From positions 2,339 through 66,338 of the forward strand of contig NJBK01000011.1 in assembly GCA_005223035.1 (NCBI GenBank): 64,000 bases of DNA, written 5' to 3'. The position numbers and the translations under genes are program-made. Every line of letters starts with the position of its first letter. Within the stretch, counting starts at the first letter, position 1. Shown one piece after another: positions 15,173 to 54,479 of the stretch. The notes beneath the pieces are model-generated. The model saw nothing but the letters and a program-made list of their open reading frames with translations, made no database searches and had not been told where the DNA came from. This stretch comes from Chloroflexi bacterium B3_Chlor (GTDB lineage: Bacteria; Chloroflexota; Anaerolineae; UBA7937; B3-Chlor).

Positions 15173-15412
15173 GACTGGCTCGGACGAGAAGGTCCCTTCA
15201 TTGCCCTGAGAACCCGCGGGCCACTGTCAGAGGATCCTCGGGGCAGGGCCCATTCGATTCCCTAGTGGCGGCTCAGCTCAAGCCAGTTTGACGGTCCATG
15301 GATCGGCCCTGACCCACCTTGCACCCGCTGCGTACGGACACCAAGCCGTCGGTCATTTCGCCCTGAGGGGCTATGCTCCAGCTCTAGAATGCATGCCGAG
15401 GGCGGCTCGGCC

Positions 15413-15441
15413 TTGACACACGAGAAATCATCGGGTATAAT
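15413..15441 (+). promoter_or_regulatory. consensus sigma70 promoter of the recombinase
   Basis: Perfect TTGACA-17 bp-TATAAT. Confidence 0.8.
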
Positions 15442-15475
15442 TATTACGTATAAGGTGGCATTATCTGTCATAATT
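15439..15475. other. putative tyrosine-recombinase recombination/binding site (lox/dif-like)
   Basis: AATTATTACGTATAA-GGTGGCA-TTATCTGTCATAATT: 15-bp imperfect inverted arms (12/15) around a 7-bp spacer. Confidence 0.6.
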
Positions 15476-15514
15476 GGCCTCTCAATGCAAGGATAGTAGC
15501 GTCGAGGAAGCGGC

Positions 15515-16423
15515 ATGTCGACGAGTGAAACCGAGTTGCAGGACACTCTAGCGGCATATGAGAAGTACTTGGTGGACTCGGGCTTGTCGCAAGTGACTAT
15601 CACGGGCTATCTCGGTGATATCAAGCAGTTTGCCTCCTGGCTCGCCGGAGAGGGAAGGACCTCCCTGCTGGCAGGCACAAGTCAGGAGATTCGCCGCTAC
15701 TGCCTGCAGCTTGTGATAGCGAAAGCCCATACTCCCGCCACTGTAAATCGGCGCCTGCAAGCTATTCGGAAGTTCTTCAGATTTGCCGTGCACACGGGGT
15801 TGGTGGATGAAGATGCCTCCTTGGGGATCAAGTTGCTGCCACAGCCGCCGTCGGAAGGGCCACGAGGGCTTGATAGGTCGGAGGTAGAGCGCCTTCTCGA
15901 TGCTGTGCGACGAGGGGCTCCTCGTCTCATGAAGAGAGACTATGCGATAGTGCAGCTCATGCTCCAGACAGGGATCCGCGTGGGGGAGCTGACCAAGCTC
16001 AAGCTGTGTGATATCTCGCTGTTCGAGGACAAGCGTGTTCTGAGGGTCCGTGGGCAAGAGGCTTCTCAAGGTCGGGAGATCCCCCTTAACAGCTCGGCTC
16101 GCAAAGCCTTGGGCGCCTACTTGGACGAGCGCGTTGGGTCAACCAACGATCACCTCTTTCTCAGCAGGAAGGGGGAGCCCCTATCCGTGCGCTCAGTGCA
16201 GAGATTGGTCAATACCTATGCTCAGGCGGCAGGTTTGGAGGACGTGTCCACGTACACCTTGCGGCAGACTTACGGTCAGCAGATGCTGAGGGACACTGGT
16301 GACCTATCCCTGGTGGCTAGGCTCATGGGCCACAAACGGCTGGAGACAGCCATCAAGTACATTCTGCCGGGGCAGGAGGATTTGACGGAGATAGCCGAGA
16401 GGAGCTCCCTCAACGTCTACTAG
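15515..16423 (+). CDS. XerC/D-like tyrosine recombinase
   Basis: N-terminal TVNRRLQAIRKFF; TGIRVGEL, YTLRQTY (HxxR variant), LMGHKRLETAIKY. Confidence 0.9.
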   Translation: MSTSETELQDTLAAYEKYLVDSGLSQVTITGYLGDIKQFASWLAGEGRTSLLAGTSQEIRRYCLQLVIAKAHTPATVNRRLQAIRKFFRFAVHTGLVDEDASLGIKLLPQPPSEGPRGLDRSEVERLLDAVRRGAPRLMKRDYAIVQLMLQTGIRVGELTKLKLCDISLFEDKRVLRVRGQEASQGREIPLNSSARKALGAYLDERVGSTNDHLFLSRKGEPLSVRSVQRLVNTYAQAAGLEDVSTYTLRQTYGQQMLRDTGDLSLVARLMGHKRLETAIKYILPGQEDLTEIAERSSLNVY

Positions 16424-16552
16424 CTTTGACGGGGGACCACAAGTACCGACCCTGGTTCATTGGTGTTGTAAGCCCACCCTTGAGCCTGGAGGCCATTGCT
16501 GACTCGGCTACCCCGCCTGGTAGGCGCTGACGGCGGAGAGGACGCCGAGTAT
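16316..16552 (+). repeat. duplicated unit, copy 1 (recombinase 3' end + structured element)
   Basis: Colinear with 17540-17773; shared GGCAGGAGGATTTGAC, CAAGTAC and GACTCGGCTACCCCGCC. Confidence 0.8.
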
Positions 16553-16555
16553 TTG
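16401..16555 (+). ncRNA. candidate structured RNA, copy 1
   Basis: Hairpin TCCCTCAA..TTGACGGGGGA followed by helix ACTCGGC...GCCGAGT; same architecture as copy 2. Confidence 0.5.
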
Positions 16556-16962
16556 CATTATTTCTAGAGATGTTTATGGTAGGGGCAGCTGTGGCGGACC
16601 CTGGGGCAGAGAGCTGCGACGCCAGGCATAGATCCGAGTTGTCTAAGAGGAACTGCAGAGGGTTTTCTTGGATGAGTGAGGGCAGTGACACCGTCAAGAG
16701 TGGTCGCGAGAGCGGATGGTCGGCATCCCGGAGCGTGCAGCCTTGTGACGAGGGGAATACGGCGATCACTACAGGCAAGGACGGAGAGGACGACCGGGTG
16801 TCCACAGGCTTGCAGGACGGCGGTGGTCGAAAGGGACACGAAGACAATCCCGTGCGGTCGGAACTCAGATCTTGCAGCGTAGGTAGTGGGAGTGTCAGGG
16901 AGGTGGAGGATCCTCGCCGAGCGATTCGATAGTGAGGTCATTGACTAGAAAGGCAAGGAAAG

Positions 16963-17478
16963 ATGACACAACTCAAGATTGGCGATAAGGTCTTGCACCC
17001 TGTGTACGGGGCGGGTACGTTGATCTCCATCGAAAACCGAGGGACAGATGGCACGACCGCGAAATACTATGTCATAGAATTGGTGAAGGGGAAGGGGCGT
17101 CTCTTGACTCCAGTGGAGAAATCAGAGGAATTGGGATTGCGAAAGCCCGTCGAAAAGCGGGGTCGTCGCGAGTTGTCGCAGGTTTTCTCAGGGCGTCCCA
17201 GAAGGCTGGCCGAGGACTATCGAAAGAGACGGGGCATCATCGACCAGCGGTTGAGGGAAGGCAGCTATGTGGAGGTTGGTCGGGTGGTTCGGGACCTGTC
17301 ATGGGTCGAGAGGCAAGGTCGAGCCACCACAGGGGATCGTCGGTTGCTCCAGAGAGCGAAGGAGTCGCTGGCAAAGGAACTGGCCGCTTCCGATGCAATA
17401 TCGGAGGAAGAGGCTATGGAGCGGATAGAGGCGGCGCTAGCAGGAAGGCTGTCGGGCAAAGGGGACAAGGGAGGGTGA
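16963..17478 (+). CDS. carD: CarD-family transcriptional regulator
   Basis: IGDKVLHPVYGAG, YYVIEL, LGLR, VGRVVRDL, AKELA. Confidence 0.9.
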   Translation: MTQLKIGDKVLHPVYGAGTLISIENRGTDGTTAKYYVIELVKGKGRLLTPVEKSEELGLRKPVEKRGRRELSQVFSGRPRRLAEDYRKRRGIIDQRLREGSYVEVGRVVRDLSWVERQGRATTGDRRLLQRAKESLAKELAASDAISEEEAMERIEAALAGRLSGKGDKGG

Positions 17479-17539
17479 GCGAGGCCCACGGACCATTCGT
17501 TTGTCAGTGAGGTTGTTGCCGTGGGCGCCGTGCAAGGAG

Positions 17540-17645
17540 GCGCGGCTAATGGGCCAGAAAAGGCCATAGATGTCCACCACGCGTATCGAGCCAAGGCAGG
17601 AGGATTTGACAGGGGCGGGTGAGAAGGGTTCCCTCAGTCTGCACC
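17540..17645 (+). pseudogene. decayed remnant of a tyrosine recombinase C-terminus
   Basis: Translates ARLMGQKRP*MSTTRIEPRQEDLTGAGEKGSLSLH, colinear with the intact ARLMGHKRLETAIKYILPGQEDLTEIAERSSLNVY. Confidence 0.75.
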
Positions 17646-17778
17646 GGGTTGAAAGGGAACCGCAAGTACAGGTTGTGCACCCATCGACAGTGAACATGGT
17701 TTGACGCTGAGGTGTGTTGTCGACTCGGCTACCCCGCCCGGCAAGACCGCGAGGTGGAAGATGGGCCGAGTCTTTCTG
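17626..17778 (+). ncRNA. candidate structured RNA, copy 2 (rpsU leader)
   Basis: Hairpin GGTTCCCT...AGGGAACC, CAAGTAC, helix GACTCGGC...GCCGAGTC, T-rich tail. Confidence 0.5.
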
Positions 17779-17842
17779 TTGTTGAGACGGAGGTTTACGC
17801 AAAGATGAGATGTCACAAAGACAGGAGGATTGGTTTTTGTGA

Positions 17843-18031
17843 GTGACATTGAGACCAGGGGAGTCGCAGGAAGAGCTGCTGAGGCGTTGGCGCAAGGCGG
17901 TGACCAAGAGTGGCGTACTCAAGGCCGTTCGCAAGAGAAGGTGGTTCATATCCAAAAGCGAGCGGCGGCGTCTGGCAAAGGCCAGAGTTGTCCACAGGGC
18001 GAGAGGAAAGGCCGCCCGCAGACGGTGGTAG
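17843..18031 (+). CDS. rpsU: 30S ribosomal protein bS21
   Basis: GESQEELLRRWRKAVTKSGVLKAVRKRRWFISKSERRR; exact start uncertain (GTG). Confidence 0.85.
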   Translation: MTLRPGESQEELLRRWRKAVTKSGVLKAVRKRRWFISKSERRRLAKARVVHRARGKAARRRW

Positions 18032-18274
18032 ACCGAGAGGTCAGGGAGCAACTGACGTTGGGGAGGCTGGCAATTGAGCCTGGGTCCTTGACTACGGGGG
18101 GTTGAGAAGGCATCCGTGCGAAGAGCGGAGCCCGAGACTGGTTGGCCTAGCTCATGACCGAATGACCGTGGGGGGCCGGCGAGACGGGATCAGGGCGAAA
18201 CTGAGGAGTAGGAGAGGATCACGGTGGAATCAGTAGTTCTGGCAGCAGATATCCGTCACTGGATGTAGAATGGG

Positions 18275-19492
18275 ATGGTGATGCCTGGGAAACTGGTCCA
18301 GATTGAAGACTACGAACAGTTCGTCGGAGCGGAAACTGTCGAACGGGTAAGGGAGAAGGCGAAGCCGCTCAAGGAGCTTCACGTGGCTCACGTGAATTCC
18401 ACCTACTACGGTGGGGGCGTGGCTGAGCTGTTGTCATCGTTGACGCTGTTGATGAACGGTCTGGGGATCACGACGGAATGGCGCGTGATTCAGGGGGCTC
18501 CCGACTTCTTCAGTGTGACCAAGAAGATGCACAATGCTCTGCAGGGTGGGCGGATCAACTTGAGCGAGCTGAAGCAGGAGATCTACGAGGGAGTCGTGTG
18601 GGAGAACTCGGTGAGGAATCATCTGGATCACGACAGGGTGATCATCCATGATCCTCAACCTCTTCCGATGATCAGTCACTATCAGAAGAAGGGGCCTTGG
18701 ATATGGCGTTGCCATGTGGACTTAACCGAGCCGAACAGAGAGCTCTGGGAATATCTCACTCCCTTCGTCGAGAAGTATGATGCGGTGATTCTCACCCTCG
18801 AGGAATACAGGCAGGAACTTGTCACGCCGCAAGTGTTCTTCATGCCCGCCATCGATCCGTTCTCCATCAAGAACAGGCACCTGAGCGAGGAGGAGAGACA
18901 AGCACGCCTGGACTACTACGACATACCAACGGATCTCCCCTTGGTGGTGCAGATTTCCCGCTTTGACCGCTGGAAGGATCCGGAAGGCGTTATCGAGGCG
19001 TTCAAACTGGCCAGAGGAGAGGTTGACGCCACGCTGGTCCTGCTAGGGAACATTGCGACAGACGATCCAGAGGGCGAGGAAGTGTATCAATCGCTGCTGG
19101 GCTGTCAGGACGAACGGATCATCATCCTGGCCCGACAGGATACGGCGCTGGTGAACGCCTTGCAGAGCCGAGCCGCCGTAGTCCTACAGAAGTCTATTCG
19201 GGAGGGCTTCGGACTTACCGTCACAGAGGCGATGTGGAAAGGCACGCCGGTCATCGGCGGGAATGTGGGAGGAATCCGATACCAGATCGAGGACGGAGTG
19301 AACGGGTTCCTTGTATCGTCCGTGGAAGAAGCCGCCCAGCGCATGGTTCAGTTGATAGCGGATGAGGAGCTGCGAGAACGGATCGGGCAGAGGGCGAAGG
19401 AGACGGTGAGGGAGCGATTCCTAATGATTCGCCTGCTTGAGCAATACGTGGATTTGCTCGACTCTTTTGAGACGATCTATAGGCTGGCATAG
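18275..19492 (+). CDS. treT: TreT-like trehalose glycosyltransferring synthase (GT4)
   Basis: VNSTYYGGGVAELL, KKMHNALQG, IHDPQP, WRCHVD, SRFDRWKDP, REGFGLTVTEAMWK. Confidence 0.85.
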   Translation: MVMPGKLVQIEDYEQFVGAETVERVREKAKPLKELHVAHVNSTYYGGGVAELLSSLTLLMNGLGITTEWRVIQGAPDFFSVTKKMHNALQGGRINLSELKQEIYEGVVWENSVRNHLDHDRVIIHDPQPLPMISHYQKKGPWIWRCHVDLTEPNRELWEYLTPFVEKYDAVILTLEEYRQELVTPQVFFMPAIDPFSIKNRHLSEEERQARLDYYDIPTDLPLVVQISRFDRWKDPEGVIEAFKLARGEVDATLVLLGNIATDDPEGEEVYQSLLGCQDERIIILARQDTALVNALQSRAAVVLQKSIREGFGLTVTEAMWKGTPVIGGNVGGIRYQIEDGVNGFLVSSVEEAAQRMVQLIADEELRERIGQRAKETVRERFLMIRLLEQYVDLLDSFETIYRLA

Positions 19493-19686
19493 GCGAGGTG
19501 GCTTCGTTTGGCCCGTGCCTGTTTGTGCCATGTCCAGGGGCTGGGAGACCGTAGAGGGTGGTGCCAAGCGCAAAGGGATGATGTCGTCCGAGGGCGCCCG
19601 CGGAGAACGTGGCCGGGATCATGAGACAAAGCTGTAGTGCTATTCTACCGGACCGGTAGCCACCAGTTGAGAAGGAGGTACAGGAC

Positions 19687-19905
19687 TTGAGACGATCCAG
19701 TAAAGGAGGGCCGATAACGGCCGCGCAATTGGGGCTCAGAGACCTGCCCAAAGGCTGGAGAGGTGCCCCATTGGATCAGGTTGTGGCCAGTGCCAAGAGA
19801 ATCGTCGAACAAAGCGAGGCAACGGGTGGTTCCGGGGATCCCCGCTTGAGGGCGGCTCTGAAGGTGCTGAAGTTTGAGGAGCGCTTGAAGGCACGAGAGA
19901 AGTAG
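19687..19905 (+). CDS. small hypothetical protein
   Basis: Strong AAGGAGGT RBS before TTG; helical, charged sequence. Confidence 0.5.
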   Translation: MRRSSKGGPITAAQLGLRDLPKGWRGAPLDQVVASAKRIVEQSEATGGSGDPRLRAALKVLKFEERLKAREK

Positions 19906-48499: not shown

Positions 48500-48588
48500 A
48501 CGGTGAGAAAGGCAAACCCATCGAAAGATGGGGACGCAAAGCCACGGGCCTGACGCTAAGAGCGTAGTATGGTAGCCGGGTTGCCTCC
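48500..48588 (+). promoter_or_regulatory. c-di-GMP-I (GEMM) riboswitch
   Basis: AAAGGCAAACCCATC-GAAA-GATGGGGACGCAAAGCCACGGGCCT...ATGGTAGCCGGGTTGCC. Confidence 0.92.
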
Positions 48589-48738
48589 GCACAATAGCTT
48601 GTTGACTAACGCGCGCTTCGAACCGGAGACCAGCTGGTGGAGGGCGCGTTTTCTTGTTCCTGACAGGATCCGAAGACCCAGTGGCAGCGGGCGCGCTTTC
48701 TGGTGCCTTGAGATTCTTGGCGTAGACAAGGGTCTGGC

Positions 48739-49989
48739 ATGAAAACTAAGTTGGGTGTAGGCTCCGCGCTGTGCTTGTTGATGCTGGTGCTGTCCAGCAC
48801 TAGGCTTGAGCTTCCCGTGCTCGCTAGCCTGCAAGGTGAAGGGCGCCAGGGGCGGGGCCAAGATGTCCTTGGGGTATCGATCCTTCCTGCGCCTACCCCC
48901 TTGGTCGGCCCGGAGCCTGAGGGCTGGACGGCCGCTCAGACCTCGGTCTCCGTGCTCAGCCAGGAGGACAGGAGCGGGTTGTGCGGCGTACCACTGGCGG
49001 TCATCGAATGGGAGGAAGAACAGGCCAGCCAGCAACCACCCATGCTCTCCGCCAGCTACACCTATCCCCCCGCCCTGGATTGGCGCAACTATGGAGGCAT
49101 GAATTGGACGACGCCGATCCGCCATCAGGGCAGCTGCGCTTCGTGCCCAGCCTTTGCCACGGTCGCGGCCATCGAATCCAGGCTGGAAATAGCCGAAGGC
49201 GACCCAGGCCTGAACCCCAACCTCTCGGAAGCTCACCTGTTCTATTGTGGGTGCGGAGCGTGCTGCGGCAGCGGCGCGGGCCCGATCTCGTTGATGGAGT
49301 TCGCTCGCGACACGGGGATCGCTGATGAAGGCTGCTTCCCCTATACGGCTCTGAACCAAGCGTGCAGTCCATGTCAGGGCTGGCAGAATCGGGTCACGAA
49401 GATCTCCGACTGGGCTGGCGTGACCGGCGTGGAAAACATGAAACAGACCCTGGCCGACGCCGGCCCCTTCGAGGCGAGCATGATCGTGTACAGTGACTTC
49501 TATGACTACTCAGGCGGGGTCTACAGGCACACCTATGGCAGCCTTGAGGGCGGCCATGCGGTGACAATTGTGGGCTACAACGACTACGGCGGGTACTGGA
49601 TCGTCAAGAACAGCTGGGGCACAGGGTGGGGCGAGAACGGCTGGTTCAGGATAGCTTACGGGCAATGCTCCATCGACAATTATGCTTATGTACCCCTTGT
49701 GGCTGAGCCATCGTACCATGTGAGTGCCAGCGCCAGCCCCCACGAGGGTGGAGTGATAGCCGCCGAGCCGCCCGATTGTGTCAGCGATACCTGTGACCCA
49801 GAGACGGTAGTCGAGCTAGCCGCGGTGCCAAGCAATGGCTACGAATTCAGCGGCTGGAGCGGTGACGCCTCAGGATCCGAAAACCCCACCAGCATCGTGG
49901 TCGATACGAACAAGGACGTGACCGCTCACTTCATCTTTCGTTGCGACGAGTGCACGCCGCAGGCTTTCCTTCCTATCGTTATCCGATAG
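48739..49989 (+). CDS. secreted papain-family (C1A) cysteine peptidase with C-terminal B-repeat-like domain
   Basis: LDWR, HQGSCASCPAFA, LSEAHL, GGHAV, KNSWGTGWGENG; GYEFSGWSGD...VTAHF; C-terminal FLPIVIR. Confidence 0.9.
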   Translation: MKTKLGVGSALCLLMLVLSSTRLELPVLASLQGEGRQGRGQDVLGVSILPAPTPLVGPEPEGWTAAQTSVSVLSQEDRSGLCGVPLAVIEWEEEQASQQPPMLSASYTYPPALDWRNYGGMNWTTPIRHQGSCASCPAFATVAAIESRLEIAEGDPGLNPNLSEAHLFYCGCGACCGSGAGPISLMEFARDTGIADEGCFPYTALNQACSPCQGWQNRVTKISDWAGVTGVENMKQTLADAGPFEASMIVYSDFYDYSGGVYRHTYGSLEGGHAVTIVGYNDYGGYWIVKNSWGTGWGENGWFRIAYGQCSIDNYAYVPLVAEPSYHVSASASPHEGGVIAAEPPDCVSDTCDPETVVELAAVPSNGYEFSGWSGDASGSENPTSIVVDTNKDVTAHFIFRCDECTPQAFLPIVIR

Positions 49990-50161: not shown

Positions 50162-53100
50162 CTACCGCTTCCGCAAGCGCATGCGGGCGTATGCAGCCAG
50201 CGGCGCAAAGCCGCTCGCCAGAAGCAGGATGGAGTCCCACTCAGGCACGAAGCCATTTCCTCCTGGTGGCTGTCCCAACGGCAGCTCGTCGTAGTCTGCG
50301 TCGGTAACCGTGCCCTCGCAGTCGTCGTCACCAGTGGCGGTGGCTTTGTTGATTATGTCGTCACCATCAGCCTTACTGGTGGTGTGGACGTACGAGAAGC
50401 CGCGGTTGGCTCCGGGGGCCAGGTAACCGATAGACCAACTCTTGCGCGTACCGCTGTGAGGAAACTCCCACTTGTCAACCACCGTCACGTTGTTCAGCGG
50501 GGTGTCTGCGGAGCAGTTGGTCACCTGGATGAGATAGGTGATGCTGTCGCCCCAGAAGAACTTCCCGCCCGCGCGTTTCGATGGCAGGTGCGTCTTGGTC
50601 ACGTCGATGCACGGGTGCAGTATCTCGACCACGTGCCCGTCGTCGTCATCCACCGTTCTGCCCAGTACATCAGTTCCTTCAACGGTAGCGGTGTTTGGCA
50701 TTCTGTCCCCGCTGAAGACGCTGGGCACTGTGAACGGCTTATCGAAGCTGTACTCCTCGTCCACAGCCAGGTCGCCCACCGTGTGCACCAGGTCTGGATC
50801 CCACAGCGGGTCCGTCACCGTCACGTCCTTGAGAGCGAAGTCGCTGCAGTTGCGCACCCAGAAGTGATAGGTGATTTCCTCACCTGGGTGGGCGCAGGAG
50901 TCTCCGGTCTTCTCGATCTCGATGCAGACGGGGGTCGCGGTGTTGACGAATGTGCAAGTCACCGTCTCGCCAGGTTCCACGTCGATGTTGTTCACAGGGC
51001 TGCCATCGTCGCAGCTGGCGCTGGTCAGGTTCCACCCCGCCGGGGTGGTCGTCTCCGCCACACTGTACCCAGACCCAGGCAAGAGGAGGCCGAAGCTTTG
51101 TGAGTCGCCGTCCTTCAGCGAGAAGCCAATCGAGCCCAACCCTCCCCCCGGTGTGAAGCCGAACAAGGTGTACGAGAGATCGGGACTGGGGTCGGTCACC
51201 TTGCGGACGATGATGGAGCCTCGCTTGGTGTTGGTGAAGGTGCACTTCACTGTCTCCCCAGGCTCGACGTTGAAGGTGGCGGTCGCGGTCTGTGTGTTTC
51301 CAGAGCTGTTGGCGTCGTCGCAGACGATGCTGGTCAGATCCCAGCCAGCGGGCACGGACTCGGTCGATGAATACTGACCCGGGTCTACCTGAGCGCTGGC
51401 GGTATCACCGTCACCCAACGTGTCTGACACGTCACCTGTGAAGCTGAAGGTCGCAGGATCGCCATCGGGCAGAGTCTGCTTCTCCACGATGATGGTGCCG
51501 AGCTTGGTGTCGGTGAAGGTGCACTTCACCGTCTCCCCAGGCTCGACGTTGAAGGTGGCGCTCCCGGTCTGTGTGTTTCCAGAGCTGTTGGCGTCGTCGC
51601 AGAGGATGCTGGTCAGATCCCAACCCGTCGGCACGGACTCGGTCGATGAATACTGACCCGGGTCTACCTGAGCGCTGGCCGTATCACCGTCACCCAACGT
51701 GTCTGACACGTCACCTGTGAAGCTGAAGGTCGCAGGATCACCATCGGGCAGAGTCTGCTTCTCCACGATGATGGAGCCTCGCTTGGTGTCGGTGAAGGTG
51801 CACTTCACCGTCTCCGCAGGCTCGACGTTGAAGGTGGCGGTCGCGGTCTGTGTGTTTCCAGAGCTGTTGGCGTCGTCGCAGACGATGCTGGTCAGATCCC
51901 AGCCAGCGGGCACGGTCTCGGTCGACGTGTAGATCCCGGATGCCAGATTCGAGAGCACGACTTGCCCGCCGTCGGAGATAGTACCCGCGGCATCACCGGC
52001 GAAAGTGAAGGTCGCAGGATCGCCATCGGGCAGAGTCTGCTTCTCCACGATGATGGAGCCTCGCTTGGTGTCGGTGAAGGTGCACTTCACCGTCTCCCCA
52101 GGCTCGACGTTGAAGGTGGCGGTCGCGGTCTGTGTGTTTCCAGAGCTGTTGGCGTCGTCGCAGACGATGCTGGTCAGATCCCAGCCAGCGGGCACGGTCT
52201 CGGTCGACGCGTAGGTCCCGGATGCCAGATTCGAGACCACGATTTGGCCGCCGTCGGAGATTGTACCCGCGGCATCACCGGCGAAAGTGAAGGTCGCCGG
52301 ATCACCACCCGGATTGGTCACCTTCTCGACGATGATGGTGCCGAGCTTGGTGTTGGTGATGGTGCAGACGATGTCGTCGCCGTTGTTCACCGTGACGTCG
52401 AGGGGACCAGCACCCGTCGTGCTCGCCACCTCGTTCTGCTGCGCGTCCACACAGGAGATGTCGATCTTGTAGTCATTGAGGTCCGTCCCGGTGTAGGCGC
52501 TCTCGCCCACCGTGTGGATGCCGGTGTATACTACCTTCTCCCCGGTGGTCCCGCCATCACCCACCATCGCAGCCTCTACAGTGCCATCGATCAGCAGATT
52601 GAACAACCCCAGATCATTATCCGGCACTAGGTCCTTCACCACCTCCAACTTGCCCGTCGTGCGTATGTCATAGAACGTGCAGGTTACGTGCTGACCCTCG
52701 GCCAGGTCGATAGACGCCGTAGGTGGCGTCTGGCTGCTCTGGTCGTCGCACACGACGCTGTCGAGAGTCCAGCCCGTAGGGACCACCAACTCGGTCACAC
52801 TGTATGTGCCAAAGTCTGTCAGGTCCACGAAGCTGATGGTGTTGGCAGAGGTCCCGTCATCGATGAGGGTGAAGTCGGTAGTAGTCTGCTGGTCGGGCCA
52901 CGTGAGGCTGAAGGGGAACTCGGTCAGGCCCTGTGGATCCGCTTCCTTCACAATGGTGATAGAGCCCGGGACGATGACGGCCCCAGCCTGCATCTGATTG
53001 TCCCGTTGTCCGATTGAGGCACCGTCGAACTCGATGAGTTTCATGTGGTAGGGAGCACCCGAGATCGAAACGGCCGAGTTGCCTGTGCCCCAATCAAGCT

Positions 53101-53725
53101 GGCTAGCAATGTGCGAGCCCCAGATCACAAGGACTTCGGACTCTCCGGCACCGACTGTGAAGGTGATCTGGATACTGGTGTTGCTGTCGCCTGTGTACGG
53201 CCCCAGGAGAGTATAGCCAGACACGCCCGTGATGTCACCGTTGTACATGGTGAAGTATTGGTCATTGGGCTGTATGCCCCCAGGAATGTTGGCGTCTGGC
53301 GGGATCAGGTGATAATCTGCCGTCCAGCCCGTGCACCCGGAGATACCGGAGCAGAAGTCGGCGAGGGTGATCCAGTCCTCAGACCAGTCCCAGCTGGTCA
53401 GGTAGTCGAAGGCGTGCTTTCCTGCCTTCGTGGTTTGCCACTCCACCGTGATGGTGTGAGTACCCGGGTCCAGACCATCGAGGTGGAGCCGATGGACTAC
53501 CGCATCACCTTCAGTGTATGTGGAGTTGTTAGGCTGGATCGCCCCATTTGTCCAATTACAGGTGCCCGTGGGACCACCTTCTCCGTCGTCGTTCGCGCAC
53601 TGGTTGTAGATGTTGACGTCGCCGGCAAACACCACCTGCAAGCCGACCATCAGCAACAAGAACAGCAACCCTGCAGCGATCAGTGGCGGAAGCCCAATGG
53701 GCAGAAGTCTTCTCGTCGGTCTCAT
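50162..53725 (-). CDS. large surface protein with prealbumin-like/SpaA-type repeats and PEP-CTERM-like anchor
   Basis: Signal peptide; repeated GSIIVEKQT.PDG...GWDLTSIVCDD...PGETVKCTFT; C-terminal FVPEWDSILLLASGFAPLAAYARMRLRKR. Confidence 0.9.
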   Translation of the reverse strand: MRPTRRLLPIGLPPLIAAGLLFLLLMVGLQVVFAGDVNIYNQCANDDGEGGPTGTCNWTNGAIQPNNSTYTEGDAVVHRLHLDGLDPGTHTITVEWQTTKAGKHAFDYLTSWDWSEDWITLADFCSGISGCTGWTADYHLIPPDANIPGGIQPNDQYFTMYNGDITGVSGYTLLGPYTGDSNTSIQITFTVGAGESEVLVIWGSHIASQLDWGTGNSAVSISGAPYHMKLIEFDGASIGQRDNQMQAGAVIVPGSITIVKEADPQGLTEFPFSLTWPDQQTTTDFTLIDDGTSANTISFVDLTDFGTYSVTELVVPTGWTLDSVVCDDQSSQTPPTASIDLAEGQHVTCTFYDIRTTGKLEVVKDLVPDNDLGLFNLLIDGTVEAAMVGDGGTTGEKVVYTGIHTVGESAYTGTDLNDYKIDISCVDAQQNEVASTTGAGPLDVTVNNGDDIVCTITNTKLGTIIVEKVTNPGGDPATFTFAGDAAGTISDGGQIVVSNLASGTYASTETVPAGWDLTSIVCDDANSSGNTQTATATFNVEPGETVKCTFTDTKRGSIIVEKQTLPDGDPATFTFAGDAAGTISDGGQVVLSNLASGIYTSTETVPAGWDLTSIVCDDANSSGNTQTATATFNVEPAETVKCTFTDTKRGSIIVEKQTLPDGDPATFSFTGDVSDTLGDGDTASAQVDPGQYSSTESVPTGWDLTSILCDDANSSGNTQTGSATFNVEPGETVKCTFTDTKLGTIIVEKQTLPDGDPATFSFTGDVSDTLGDGDTASAQVDPGQYSSTESVPAGWDLTSIVCDDANSSGNTQTATATFNVEPGETVKCTFTNTKRGSIIVRKVTDPSPDLSYTLFGFTPGGGLGSIGFSLKDGDSQSFGLLLPGSGYSVAETTTPAGWNLTSASCDDGSPVNNIDVEPGETVTCTFVNTATPVCIEIEKTGDSCAHPGEEITYHFWVRNCSDFALKDVTVTDPLWDPDLVHTVGDLAVDEEYSFDKPFTVPSVFSGDRMPNTATVEGTDVLGRTVDDDDGHVVEILHPCIDVTKTHLPSKRAGGKFFWGDSITYLIQVTNCSADTPLNNVTVVDKWEFPHSGTRKSWSIGYLAPGANRGFSYVHTTSKADGDDIINKATATGDDDCEGTVTDADYDELPLGQPPGGNGFVPEWDSILLLASGFAPLAAYARMRLRKR
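51210..52340 (-). repeat. four near-identical ~280-bp intragenic tandem repeats
   Basis: TGTGTGTTTCCAGAGCTGTTGGCGTCGTCGCAGA recurs near 51291, 51570, 51849 and 52131. Confidence 0.9.
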
Positions 53726-53928: not shown

Positions 53929-54050
53929 AAAAAGCCGGGCTACCGAAATCCTTCGGCAGCCCGGCTATCCTGATACGGCAACAACCCGTACGTCGGACCC
54001 TCAAGCTTTGCGCCCATCCTCACCATTGAGGGAAGGTTGCCATTGTCGGG
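53929..54050 (-). promoter_or_regulatory. c-di-GMP-I riboswitch with overlapping terminator
   Basis: Minus strand: ACAATGGCAACC...GGGCGCAAAGC...GGGTC...GATAGCCGGGCTGCCGAAG; hairpin AGCCGGGCTGCCGAA..TTCGGTAGCCCGGCT-TTTT. Confidence 0.85.
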
Positions 54051-54116
54051 ATTTCCTGCTATGGAATGCCGGTGAGTGTCTGGACGGATACCTTCTAGAC
54101 AGATCACCAGCCGAAA

Positions 54117-54212
54117 CGAAAAAACCGGCCACTGCTCGTAGCCGGTTGCACCACTGGCTCCTCGCCGCTCAGGTGCCCAATCTTGAGCGACGCCTCATCG
54201 CCTCCACTGCGC
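54117..54212 (-). promoter_or_regulatory. c-di-GMP-II riboswitch with overlapping terminator
   Basis: Minus strand: GGAGGCGATGAGG-CGTCGCTCAAGATTGGGCACCTGAGCGGCG-AGGAGCCAGTGGTGCAACCGGC; terminator AACCGGCTAC...GTGGCCGGTTTTTT. Confidence 0.88.
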
Positions 54213-54479
54213 CATAAGAAAGCAAGTTATCAAGTTGTCAATGGGGACGCCGTTTCCTCATCTCTCCACAAATACGACGTCGGGCTTCAACGCTTTAGTG
54301 CTCTCCATGGCTCGGGCTTCATAAGGTCTCGATGCCTACCACCTCTACACCTTCCCGGTCATCGAGCAGAGTTCTTAGTTCCTGAGCGCAAAGGAGATGC
54401 CTACAAAGCACAAACGTCCGACGCTTTTCCGAATTGCGTCCCTCCCCTACCGGGTTAGCTGGCGAGAAGAGTGATTTCC

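Follow-up and report, generated by a model that had tools for sequence, protein, structure and literature searches.

Attenuating leaders of ribosomal-protein genes are represented by the L20 and L10 leaders of Bacillus and by the S10 leader of E. coli with L4, and in trp-type systems attenuation is mediated by the ribosome on a leader ORF. bS21, the ribosomal protein encoded by rpsU, governs the use of the anti-Shine-Dalgarno. The general principle of attenuation by ribosomal-protein leaders is treated in PMC7247131. According to PMC10931766, the control of the bS21 level is known only in part: it relies on Shine-Dalgarno pairing in Flavobacteria and on a leader in Francisella, with the E. coli mechanism still unknown. 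Autoregulation of flavobacterial rpsU via an extended Shine-Dalgarno sequence is described in PMC9976891, PMC13000453, PMC7797042 and PMC10931766. For Francisella tularensis, the available part of PMC13374519 reports that the rpsU2 leader suffices to make transcript abundance subject to bS21-dependent repression, acting at least partly through mRNA stability and with stem-loops that have no influence on regulation. In the literature searched, no leader of the attenuator kind has been reported for bS21.

The locus described here belongs to Chloroflexi bacterium B3_Chlor and lies in a window of 64 kb (the whole stretch of DNA that was analysed). It carries an element that is probably a cis-acting terminator/antiterminator attenuator of ~180 nt and serves as a leader for bS21, as judged from predicted pairings and gene association. 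Like the L20, L10 and S10 leaders, it would place structure in the 5' leader of a ribosomal-protein gene and make a Rho-independent terminator conditional on alternative pairing; unlike them, the element has no Rfam match, lies partly inside the upstream coding region in some copies and has paralogues before non-ribosomal genes. With the flavobacterial system it shares the regulated gene and a Shine-Dalgarno-like GGAGGU, here the most conserved feature, although flavobacterial control is translational and exerted via ribosomes without bS21, whereas that proposed for the element acts on transcription. The F. tularensis rpsU2 leader also belongs to a bS21 mRNA, in an unrelated organism. As in trp-type systems, translation of the last 13 codons of xerC would unwind the antiterminator strand in those copies that overlap this gene, although the ORF is then a full-length recombinase gene, and rpsU-linked copies without xerC show no conserved upstream ORF. 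If this reading is true, rpsU would be preceded by a conserved, structured leader equipped with a terminator switch. Such a leader would constitute a new class of ribosomal leader, make bS21 homeostasis in Chloroflexota accessible to tests and exemplify a regulatory RNA that extends into the end of the gene before it and has been multiplied within one gene cluster. As a computational prediction for one order of uncultured sediment Anaerolineae-type bacteria, its reach is limited.

A family of paralogous elements

The two repeats in the window are confirmed as genuine paralogous copies of the ~180-nt RNA element, both on the + strand. Copy 1 (type A, 16383..16563) and copy 2 (type C, rpsU-linked, 17607..17784) score 70.3 and 107.2 bits, respectively, with covariance model R2, which was trained on 21 sequences from other genomes and metagenomes, both window copies being excluded. 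A search of the 64-kb window with R2 (E ≤ 1) returns only copies 2 and 1, at 107 and 70 bits (E 2.9e-35 and 9.3e-23), which bears out the two-copy structured RNA proposed in the earlier note. Taken pairwise, the case for more than chance is weak, with copy 2 recovered just as two fragments (E 0.02 and 0.08) in a BLAST comparison of copy 1 with its own genome, whereas the family-level case is decisive. Folded singly, the two copies do no better than their shuffles (z +0.21 and -0.91). No third copy was found in the host genome (2.8 Mb, 85% complete).

The span originally assigned to this RNA (16401-17778) does hold both repeats, but it also includes the whole carD gene, and the similarity between the copies begins earlier, at ~16371 and ~17595 or before, so that copy 1 starts inside the xerC-like ORF (end 16423). 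On the copy 2 side, the corresponding sequence is a non-coding xerC-tail relic.

Covariance-model searches combined with a tally of downstream genes, as the earlier note had suggested, yield further homologues, mostly upstream of rpsU. Within the host's order, model R1 detects the element in 16 of 27 genomes (11/15 in f1, 4/8 in f3 and 0/3 in f2), related genomes in these counts being non-independent samples, and it is found in 0 of 150 other genomes sampled across the phylum. A weak match of 21.4 bits, confined to the T part described below, occurs in G033, from another family. Metagenome loci were fetched by a pattern scan that requires the exact P0 5' strand and T start motifs; R1 matches 20 of 80 such loci among the matches listed, and 18 of these 20 lie directly upstream of rpsU. 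The other 60 were discarded as chance matches, having neither a model match nor a match to any cluster protein. As known so far, the element is narrowly distributed, in a single order of Anaerolineae-type bacteria that are uncultured and come from sediments.

The claim that the RNA belongs to no known family has held: a strong Rfam match, named beforehand as the result that would overturn it, did not occur. Rfam 15 gives no match for 16300-18300 at the gathering threshold, and at E ≤ 10 the only match, to PVT1_6 on the minus strand, is a chance one (17.6 bits, the threshold being 45). Seven related loci, with 55,162 bases in total, give 0 Rfam matches.

Anatomy and alternative pairings

The element can adopt two mutually exclusive pairings. 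In the first, a near-invariant 5' strand, CGGAGGUAGCUGAG, pairs with CUCGGCUGCCCCG to form P0, which encloses hairpins P1 to P3. In the second, the 3' strand of P0 contributes instead to a helix between GACUCGGC and GCCGAGUC, followed by a U-rich run (T). In copy 1, the P0 strands occupy 16386-16399 and 16503-16515, P1 occupies 16401-16438, and the T helix pairs 16501-16508 with 16544-16551 (7 pairs), its U-rich tail covering 16551-16563. In copy 2, the 5' strand of P0 is degenerate (17610-17623, with 10 of 13 pairs possible to 17724-17736), P1 lies at 17627-17661, and the T helix pairs 17722-17729 with 17765-17772 (8 pairs), ahead of a U-rich tail at 17773-17784 with 7 U in its first 10 bases.

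The motifs first noticed in the two repeats find their place in this scheme. The 5' hairpin TCCCTCA...TTGA..GGGRACC corresponds to P1, the TTGA..CTG.AGG block to the 3' side of P3, and the CAAGTAC linker is present in the sequence; the identical 17-mer, GACTCGGCTACCCCGCC, lies at 16501-16517 and 17722-17738. The ACTCGGC/GCCGAGT helix with its diverged interior is T (16501-16550; 17722-17772), a description now refined by the U-rich run that follows it and by the competition with the long-range helix P0.

Changes on both sides of pairs are concentrated in the internal hairpins. Applied to a plain MAFFT alignment of 8 sequences, RNAalifold predicts P0 with P1, P2 and P3 (36 pairs, 10 changed on both sides). 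With 21 sequences, from which both copies in the window were excluded, it recovers P0, P1, part of P3 and a short stem of 3 pairs (32 pairs, 10 changed on both sides) but misses the longer P2. In the model-fitted alignment, 82.0% of cells pair, as against 33-48% with slid partners, and 28 of 36 pairs are changed on both sides. All alignments were used without hand editing, and they draw on related sequences sampled with bias. Across 25 sequences, P0 is paired in 95.7% and T in 95.0% of cells, compared with 18-46% when slid, about half of these sequences having been fetched with a pattern requiring the P0 5' strand and the T start, so that invariance there is partly by construction. The earlier note had named the lack of further homologues with compensatory changes as a refutation; homologues with changes on both sides of pairs are available for the internal hairpins but not for P0 and T: in these 25 sequences no both-side changes were found in the two helices, shuffles do as well, and variation is confined to G-C/G-U or U-G/U-A swaps. 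Conservation and wobble-compatible changes, and these only, argue for P0 and T, the two most conserved helices. P0 contains U-G pairs at two positions (in 19 and 21 of the 25 sequences) where the other strand would have A-C mismatches, which points to the + strand as the one read into RNA.

Energetically, the forced-P0 and forced-T folds lie a few kcal/mol apart in many members and are equal in copy 1 (-60.9 for both), while copy 2 strongly favours T (-65.0 kcal/mol, versus -47.4 with P0 forced). The junction interior has a mean z of -1.41, with 16 of 25 sequences below -1 and the window copies at -0.3 and -0.2. Thermodynamic support for the structure is modest.

Some of these results would suit unregulated terminators, that is, a T that serves the upstream gene as intrinsic terminator and was duplicated along with the xerC tail as part of a promoter-xerC-rpsU unit, and a P0 without function. 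P0 lacks compensatory changes, copy 2 prefers T, and in the broad MAFFT alignment of 38 sequences RNAalifold retains T alone; the last result arises because the middle of that alignment is misaligned. Against unregulated terminators, P1 to P3 show changes on both sides of pairs.

The multi-stem junction with a terminator as expression platform also recalls a riboswitch, an option of the earlier note, or a leader for a factor other than bS21, in which the P0-P1-P2-P3 junction would bind a small molecule or another protein (e.g. a growth-rate signal) and co-regulate carD, treT and rpsU. The presence of copies before three different genes of one cluster would suit such a signal. In known aptamers, the cores are conserved, whereas here the invariant columns lie in the switching helices P0 and T, and the junction strands and hairpins are variable, leaving no conserved ligand-binding core in junctions or loops. 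Given also the narrow distribution, in one order, this explanation is quite improbable.

Gene neighbourhood and overlap with xerC

The cluster starts with the gene for a XerC/XerD-like tyrosine recombinase (302 aa; 15515..16423, + strand; 164-166 bits with XerC/XerD models, which score best). In copy 1, the last 13 codons of this gene supply the 5' strands of both P0 and P1, and its stop codon falls in the P1 loop. Copy 1 is followed by a spacer without a Pfam-supported ORF (16564..16962, +), of 399 nt as against 91-212 nt in relatives, and by a carD/cdnL-like gene with CarD_TRCF_RID and CarD_C domains (16963..17478, +), which separates the two copies. Copy 2 ends 59 nt before the start of rpsU (17843..18031, +), which begins with GTG, encodes 62 aa and is the sole S21 gene detected in the host genome. 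The Shine-Dalgarno AGGAGG of this gene (17823..17828, +) lies ~40 nt beyond the element and T is a stable hairpin, so a thermometer, also considered in the earlier note, has little support. The rpsU genes of the family have strong Shine-Dalgarno sequences, e.g. GGGAGGUG.

Among the 38 distinct aligned sequences, 25 (copy 2 and 24 relatives) lie directly upstream of rpsU, so that a conserved element does stand in the 5' leader of a ribosomal-protein gene; of the four options raised in the earlier note, the ribosomal-protein leader fits best. Model end and rpsU start codon are 57-59 nt apart in almost all cases, with one of 67 nt and with 22-23 nt in G017, G021 and G025 of f3. In G015, which has two S21 genes, each is preceded by its own copy. 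Other paralogous copies precede carD, and treT or a small ORF, and the genes between copies differ by genus (none, carD, or carD with treT and the small ORF). The carD and treT/small-ORF paralogues are unexplained by a purely bS21-specific leader.

Five distinct xerC-rpsU copies overlap xerC, and elsewhere the element follows a tRNA gene. In rpsU-linked copies without an upstream xerC, the 14-nt P0 5' strand is retained where it is non-coding, amid neighbouring sequence that has diverged, and no conserved upstream ORF was found over it in rpsU-linked copies, in which stops and missing starts differ even within a genus. In xerC itself, codons at 4- and 6-fold sites are identical with a frequency of 0.74 over the last 13 codons, as against 0.43 upstream. 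By these comparisons, the constraint on the 5' strand is not protein coding. Both the retained strand and the constrained synonymous sites of the xerC tail count against unregulated terminators. In favour of that explanation, the rpsU-linked copies carry an xerC-tail relic and promoters that resemble the xerC promoter region, so that the duplication is evident.

Every copy lies in a cluster that begins with a tyrosine recombinase gene, and the genes between copies differ among genera, which could alternatively point to a site that acts as DNA. The inverted repeat GACTCGGC-N34-GCCGAGTC would then be a recombination site, folded like an integron attC site, for the neighbouring Xer-like recombinase, or a homologous-recombination substrate that reshuffles the cluster. 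However, the pairing is strand-specific and includes G-U pairs, the U-run and the fixed spacing to rpsU call for another explanation, and the intervening genes have housekeeping functions and keep their order. With arms of 8 bp set 34 bp apart, the repeat also differs from dif-type sites, whose arms of ~11 bp flank a spacer of 6-8 bp. A DNA-level role is extremely improbable. An integron was also considered and dropped: the recombinase, XerC/XerD-like at 164-166 bits, reaches 48 bits on the integron integrase model, whose cut-off is 265.

Terminator features and promoters

The T hairpin has a stability of -17 to -31 kcal/mol, and at least 6 U occur in the next 10 bases in 25/25 rpsU-linked copies, the G+C content of the element being 46-67%. 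With -23.8 kcal/mol and 6 U in 10 in copy 1, and -26.6 kcal/mol and 7 U in 10 in copy 2, both window copies have the stable G+C-rich hairpin and immediate U-run of an intrinsic (Rho-independent) terminator. Both were missed by a simple terminator scanner because its loops were limited to 3-8 nt. Since T shares a strand with P0, all 25 rpsU-linked copies also have the predicted layout of a terminator governed by alternative pairing. Among type-A copies, the U-rich tail is present in just 6 of 13.

Upstream of the xerC-like gene lies a sigma-70-type consensus promoter (TTGACA-17-TATAAT, 12/12; 15413..15441, +), the only promoter-like site in a scan of the + strand from 15300 to 19700. It is followed by a promoter-proximal box, ACGTATAAGGTGGCATTATCTGTCAT (15446..15471, +; BLAST identities of 81-92% over 25-38 nt), and a similar box comes after the -10 of promoters preceding rpsU-linked copies in other genomes. 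Near-consensus promoters occur 163-216 nt upstream of 14 of the 18 rpsU-linked copies with enough flank, and in G024, where xerC directly precedes rpsU, the gene strand has a single promoter-like site, located before xerC. No promoter above the scan threshold was found between T and rpsU. With the promoters upstream of the element, transcription must pass T. A TTGAnA...TGAGAT pattern seen by eye in some copies was rejected as a promoter, because its spacing varies over 15-18 nt and its -10 lacks the A at position 2.

An efficient constitutive T would silence rpsU both in the xerC-rpsU arrangement and behind dedicated promoters, and, with the both-side changes in P1 to P3 and the constraint given above, this makes unregulated terminators unlikely. 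The same strong promoters, together with the terminator features of T, could instead delimit a separate non-coding RNA of 340-400 nt, a trans-acting RNA gene with rpsU merely downstream. The fixed spacing of 57-59 nt to the rpsU start argues against this, as do the overlap with xerC or the position behind a tRNA gene elsewhere, and between promoter and element conservation across genera is limited to the 26-nt box; nor is there a known target. The trans-acting RNA of the earlier note thus retains little support, and a separate gene of this kind is very improbable. Copy 2 has no promoter of its own that could be found, and with its weakened P0 (10/13) rpsU would be hard to express under the attenuator model.

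A putative attenuator for bS21

In the preferred reading, the element would work as an attenuator on the nascent RNA. CGGAGGUAGCUGAG would pair with CUCGGCUGCCCCG into a 13-bp helix, P0, that closes a junction of three variable hairpins, P1 to P3, and as long as P0 stands, GACUCGGC would not be available. With the 5' strand occupied, or with P0 not formed, GACUCGGC would pair with GCCGAGUC, and T with its U-rich run would act as an intrinsic terminator. We infer from this layout that T terminates transcription and that P0 prevents termination. The best-conserved form, 57-59 nt upstream of rpsU and represented here by copy 2, is read as the bS21 leader; copy 1 would be a paralogue lying across the 3' end of the xerC-like gene, ahead of carD. 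The likeliest effector would be bS21 itself or ribosomes. The input may consist of 30S subunits that bind the Shine-Dalgarno-like GGAGGU in the 5' strand or, where this strand is coding, of ribosomes that translate the end of xerC, and an input from bS21 or ribosomes would establish negative feedback.

A more specific, rather unlikely proposal is that the element senses ribosome composition rather than the free protein. Here, 30S subunits bearing bS21 would bind GGAGGU as a decoy in the antiterminator strand, so that P0 would not form, T would form and rpsU transcription would stop, whereas bS21-less ribosomes would fail to bind and rpsU would be transcribed; ancestrally, ribosomes engaged in translation of the xerC end would have kept P0 from forming. 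If true, sensing of ribosome composition would mirror the flavobacterial bS21 circuit at the level of transcription: a full-length recombinase gene would act as leader ORF, and paralogues would tie carD and treT to the same signal. In the available portions of the literature searched, no contact of bS21 with 16S rRNA helix 45 is described. Over 6-8 nt, and possibly by chance, the P0 core GGUAGCUG/CGGCUG looks like the lower stem that helix 45 has in the organism's own 16S rRNA (GGUAGCCG.../...CGGCUGG).

Homology and genomic setting of the two copies

The two copies in the window belong to a real and conserved RNA element of about 180 nt, a cis-regulatory candidate not filed before. Its most likely role is that of a bS21 leader predicted to work by attenuation. 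The earlier note had described a two-copy candidate structured RNA at 16401-17778; the motifs that it listed are all found in the sequence and the span does hold the repeats, but it also encloses the whole carD gene. The similarity extends about 30 nt farther upstream than was described there, so that copy 1 starts within the recombinase ORF, and the stop codon of this ORF falls in the 5' hairpin loop of the copy. Pairwise likeness is weak, as BLAST recovers copy 2 in two pieces only (E 0.02 and 0.08), and the folds of the single copies are no more stable than those of shuffled controls (z +0.21 and -0.91). Homology is settled by the family-level search: covariance model R2, for which 21 sequences from other genomes and metagenomes were used and the two window copies excluded, matches exactly two sites in the 64 kb at E<=1, copy 2 at 17607-17784 (107.2 bits) and copy 1 at 16383-16563 (70.3 bits). 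Rfam gave no match here or in seven related loci.

Both copies lie in a cluster on the + strand. A consensus promoter (12/12; 15413-15441), the only + strand promoter-like site found in 15300-19700, precedes a XerC/XerD-like tyrosine recombinase gene (15515-16423), which is followed by copy 1, a 399-nt spacer without a family-supported ORF (16564-16962; 91-212 nt in relatives), a carD-like gene (16963-17478), copy 2, rpsU encoding bS21 (17843-18031), a treT-like glycosyltransferase gene (18275-19492) and a small conserved ORF (19687-19905). The latter (~72-80 aa; also L027:4493-4735) is kept across genera and has no Pfam or NCBIfam family. The genome has a single S21 gene, related recombinases are found in MAGs of Chloroflexota or uncultured Anaerolineales, and sediment metagenomes contain DNA almost identical to the stretch with the cluster. 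In element-linked loci, the start codon of rpsU is almost always GTG or TTG and is preceded by a strong Shine-Dalgarno sequence, which is often extended (GGGAGGUG). At window 17823-17845, the TTG aligned with the rpsU start of relatives runs directly into TGA, and the start is therefore placed two codons downstream, at GTG 17843.

Distribution and gene context

More homologues do exist, as BLAST and covariance-model searches make clear. BLAST with copy 2 detects relatives in 7 of 41 genomes, its own included, and within the order, model R1, built from eight sequences, detects the element in 16 of 27 genomes (11/15 in family f1, 4/8 in f3 and 0/3 in f2), a single genome having as many as four matches. 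In samples that include many incomplete genomes, matches occur in 4 of 151 genomes across the class, three from the same order and one a weak 21-bit match, and R2 matches none of 150 other genomes across the phylum. Pattern scanning of metagenome contigs yielded at least 123 stretches, of which 80 were examined; 20 of these have model matches, and no cluster genes were found in the other 60.

According to their neighbouring genes, the elements can be grouped into three paralogous types. Type A overlaps the end of the recombinase gene, with carD next downstream; type B is located between carD and treT or the small ORF; and type C is the immediate upstream neighbour of rpsU. Five distinct type C sequences form type XC, in which the recombinase gene leads directly into the element and rpsU comes next. 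By these positions copy 1 is type A and copy 2 type C. The rpsU-linked class makes up 25 of 38 distinct aligned sequences, and nearly all of its copies have 57-59 nt between the model end and the rpsU start codon; in one copy the distance is 67 nt, and in three genomes of f3 (G017, G021, G025) it is 22-23 nt. On contig C74 of G015 (L035, L045), two S21 genes about 1.6 kb apart each have their own element at 57-58 nt.

Predicted structure

RNAalifold was run on MAFFT alignments fitted to no model, of 8 and 21 sequences. Both runs predict the hairpin P1 and the long-range helix P0, formed by CGGAGGUAGCUGAG with CUCGGCUGCCCCG (13 pairs and a bulged A with 8 sequences, 12 pairs with 21). From 8 sequences, P0 encloses the hairpins P1, P2 and P3 (36 pairs, both-side changes in 10); from 21 sequences without the window copies, P0, P1, a 3-pair stem and part of P3 are predicted (32 pairs, 10 changed on both sides), and the longer P2 is not. 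The pairing of P1 is kept despite sequence differences among subgroups (UUCCCU/AGGGAA, CGCUCCCU/AGGGAGCG and UUCUUC/GGAGGAA, or GCCCAU/AUGGGC versus ACCCAU/AUGGGU). In a model-fitted alignment of 35 matches, which favours the structure, 82.0% of cells pair versus 33-48% with slid partners, and 28 of 36 pairs show both-side changes, with none of 500 shuffles as good.

The segment GACUCGGC overlaps the 3' strand of P0 and has an alternative partner, GCCGAGUC, 34 nt downstream, with which it can form the terminator-like hairpin T. This is the ACTCGGC/GCCGAGT helix seen in the earlier note, and the sole helix recovered from a broad alignment of 38 sequences. Folded alone, the T module reaches -17 to -31 kcal/mol in rpsU-linked copies, all 25 of which have at least 6 U in 10 bases after T; among the 13 type-A copies, just 6 have at least 5 U in 10 bases. 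When folding is forced into P0 or T, the two energies lie only a few kcal/mol apart in many members, and in copy 1 both are -60.9 kcal/mol; in copy 2, 3 of 13 P0 pairs are lost and T is strongly preferred (-65.0 versus -47.4 kcal/mol). In a plain alignment of 25 sequences, about half of them picked by a pattern requiring the P0/T motifs, P0 pairs in 95.7% and T in 95.0% of cells (slid controls 18-46%), with no both-side changes in either helix and shuffles scoring equally well, so that the putative P0 and T rest on sequence conservation and wobble-compatible swaps. The motifs do vary in sequences found by BLAST or model (copy 2, G010, G015b and the three f3 genomes). Compared with shuffles, the junction interior has a moderate folding advantage (mean z -1.41; below -1 in 16 of 25 sequences), which the two window copies lack.

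Evidence for constraint at the RNA level

Two positions of P0 are U-G pairs in 19 and 21 of 25 sequences, which would be mismatches if the other strand were transcribed. The 5' strand is retained in rpsU-linked copies even where the recombinase gene is missing upstream and the adjacent sequence has diverged, and no conserved upstream ORF was found in these copies. Among 16 recombinase sequences, the fraction of identical codons among same-residue pairs is, at 4-/6-fold sites, 0.425 for codons -90 to -32, 0.649 for -31 to -14 and 0.737 for -13 to -2, and rises at 2-/3-fold sites from 0.659 to 1.000 toward the gene end. Synonymous-site identity is already raised from about codon -31, ahead of the modelled element (window 16331-16384), which hints at a further overlapping constraint on codons -31 to -14.

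Transcription and proposed mechanism

Among 18 rpsU-linked copies with 450 nt of flank, a near-consensus promoter (at least 10/12) ends 163-216 nt upstream in 14; copy 2, two G015 copies and one metagenome copy have none. G024 has the recombinase gene immediately before rpsU, and there the sole promoter-like site on the gene strand (12/12) lies upstream of the recombinase gene. Given these positions, and barring undetected promoters, rpsU transcripts must read through T. In three f3 genomes a tRNA-Asn gene lies between promoter and element (L039:1338-1412, L040:1329-1403, L041:1333-1407), so that the element would be co-transcribed with the tRNA.

Both partner strands of P0 would be transcribed ahead of the 3' strand of T, and co-transcriptional folding should therefore lead by default to P0 and read-through, whereas occupation of the near-invariant 5' strand would free GACUCGGC and permit termination. 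GGAGGU within the 5' strand is the complement of the anti-Shine-Dalgarno CACCUCC in the organism's own 16S rRNA, and the strand is also translated in types A and XC, which makes bS21, 30S subunits or ribosomes ending the recombinase ORF candidate inputs; each would mean negative feedback on rpsU. There is also a likeness of 6-8 nt, perhaps due to chance, between the P0 core and the lower stem of 16S helix 45. A simple account is argued against by copy 2, with its weakened P0, its preference for T and no promoter of its own, and by the paralogues that precede carD and treT. Attenuation ahead of rpsU would place the element beside terminator-type ribosomal-protein leaders, with the same mode of action.

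No structured bS21 leader was found in the literature outside subscription journals that deals with rpsU/S21 leaders, autoregulation and Chloroflexi. The main text of a 2020 survey of 20 ribosomal leader candidates (PMC7247131) does not name S21, bS21 or rpsU; a 2024 review (PMC10931766), where it treats rpsU, gives the regulation of the E. coli gene as unknown and describes a flavobacterial Shine-Dalgarno mechanism. Leader-dependent control is described for one Francisella bS21 paralogue in a 2026 paper (PMC13374519).

Proposed origin of the cluster and further observations

In the rpsU-linked copies, a remnant of the recombinase tail persists as non-coding sequence, and their transcript start resembles the recombinase promoter region through a common 26-nt box. 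These two features fit an ancestral promoter-recombinase-element-rpsU unit that may have been duplicated, one copy then losing most of the recombinase gene; such a unit is present in G024 and four metagenome contigs, and gene order between copies varies among genera. The box itself, ACGTATAAGGTGGCATTATCTGTCAT, lies just past the -10 of the recombinase promoter (window 15446-15471) and past the -10 of rpsU-leader promoters in L036, L067, L068, L090 and L122; it could be a duplication relic, an operator or a 5' hairpin.

Elsewhere in the window, a c-di-GMP-I-GGC aptamer (48502-48589, + strand, 70.9 bits) is followed downstream by a 416-aa ORF (48739-49989). On the - strand, c-di-GMP-II (54132-54214, 60.5 bits) and c-di-GMP-I (53952-54051, 36.3 bits) aptamers precede a 1187-aa ORF (53725..50162), and two aptamer classes in tandem ahead of one gene (53952-54214) are an unusual arrangement.
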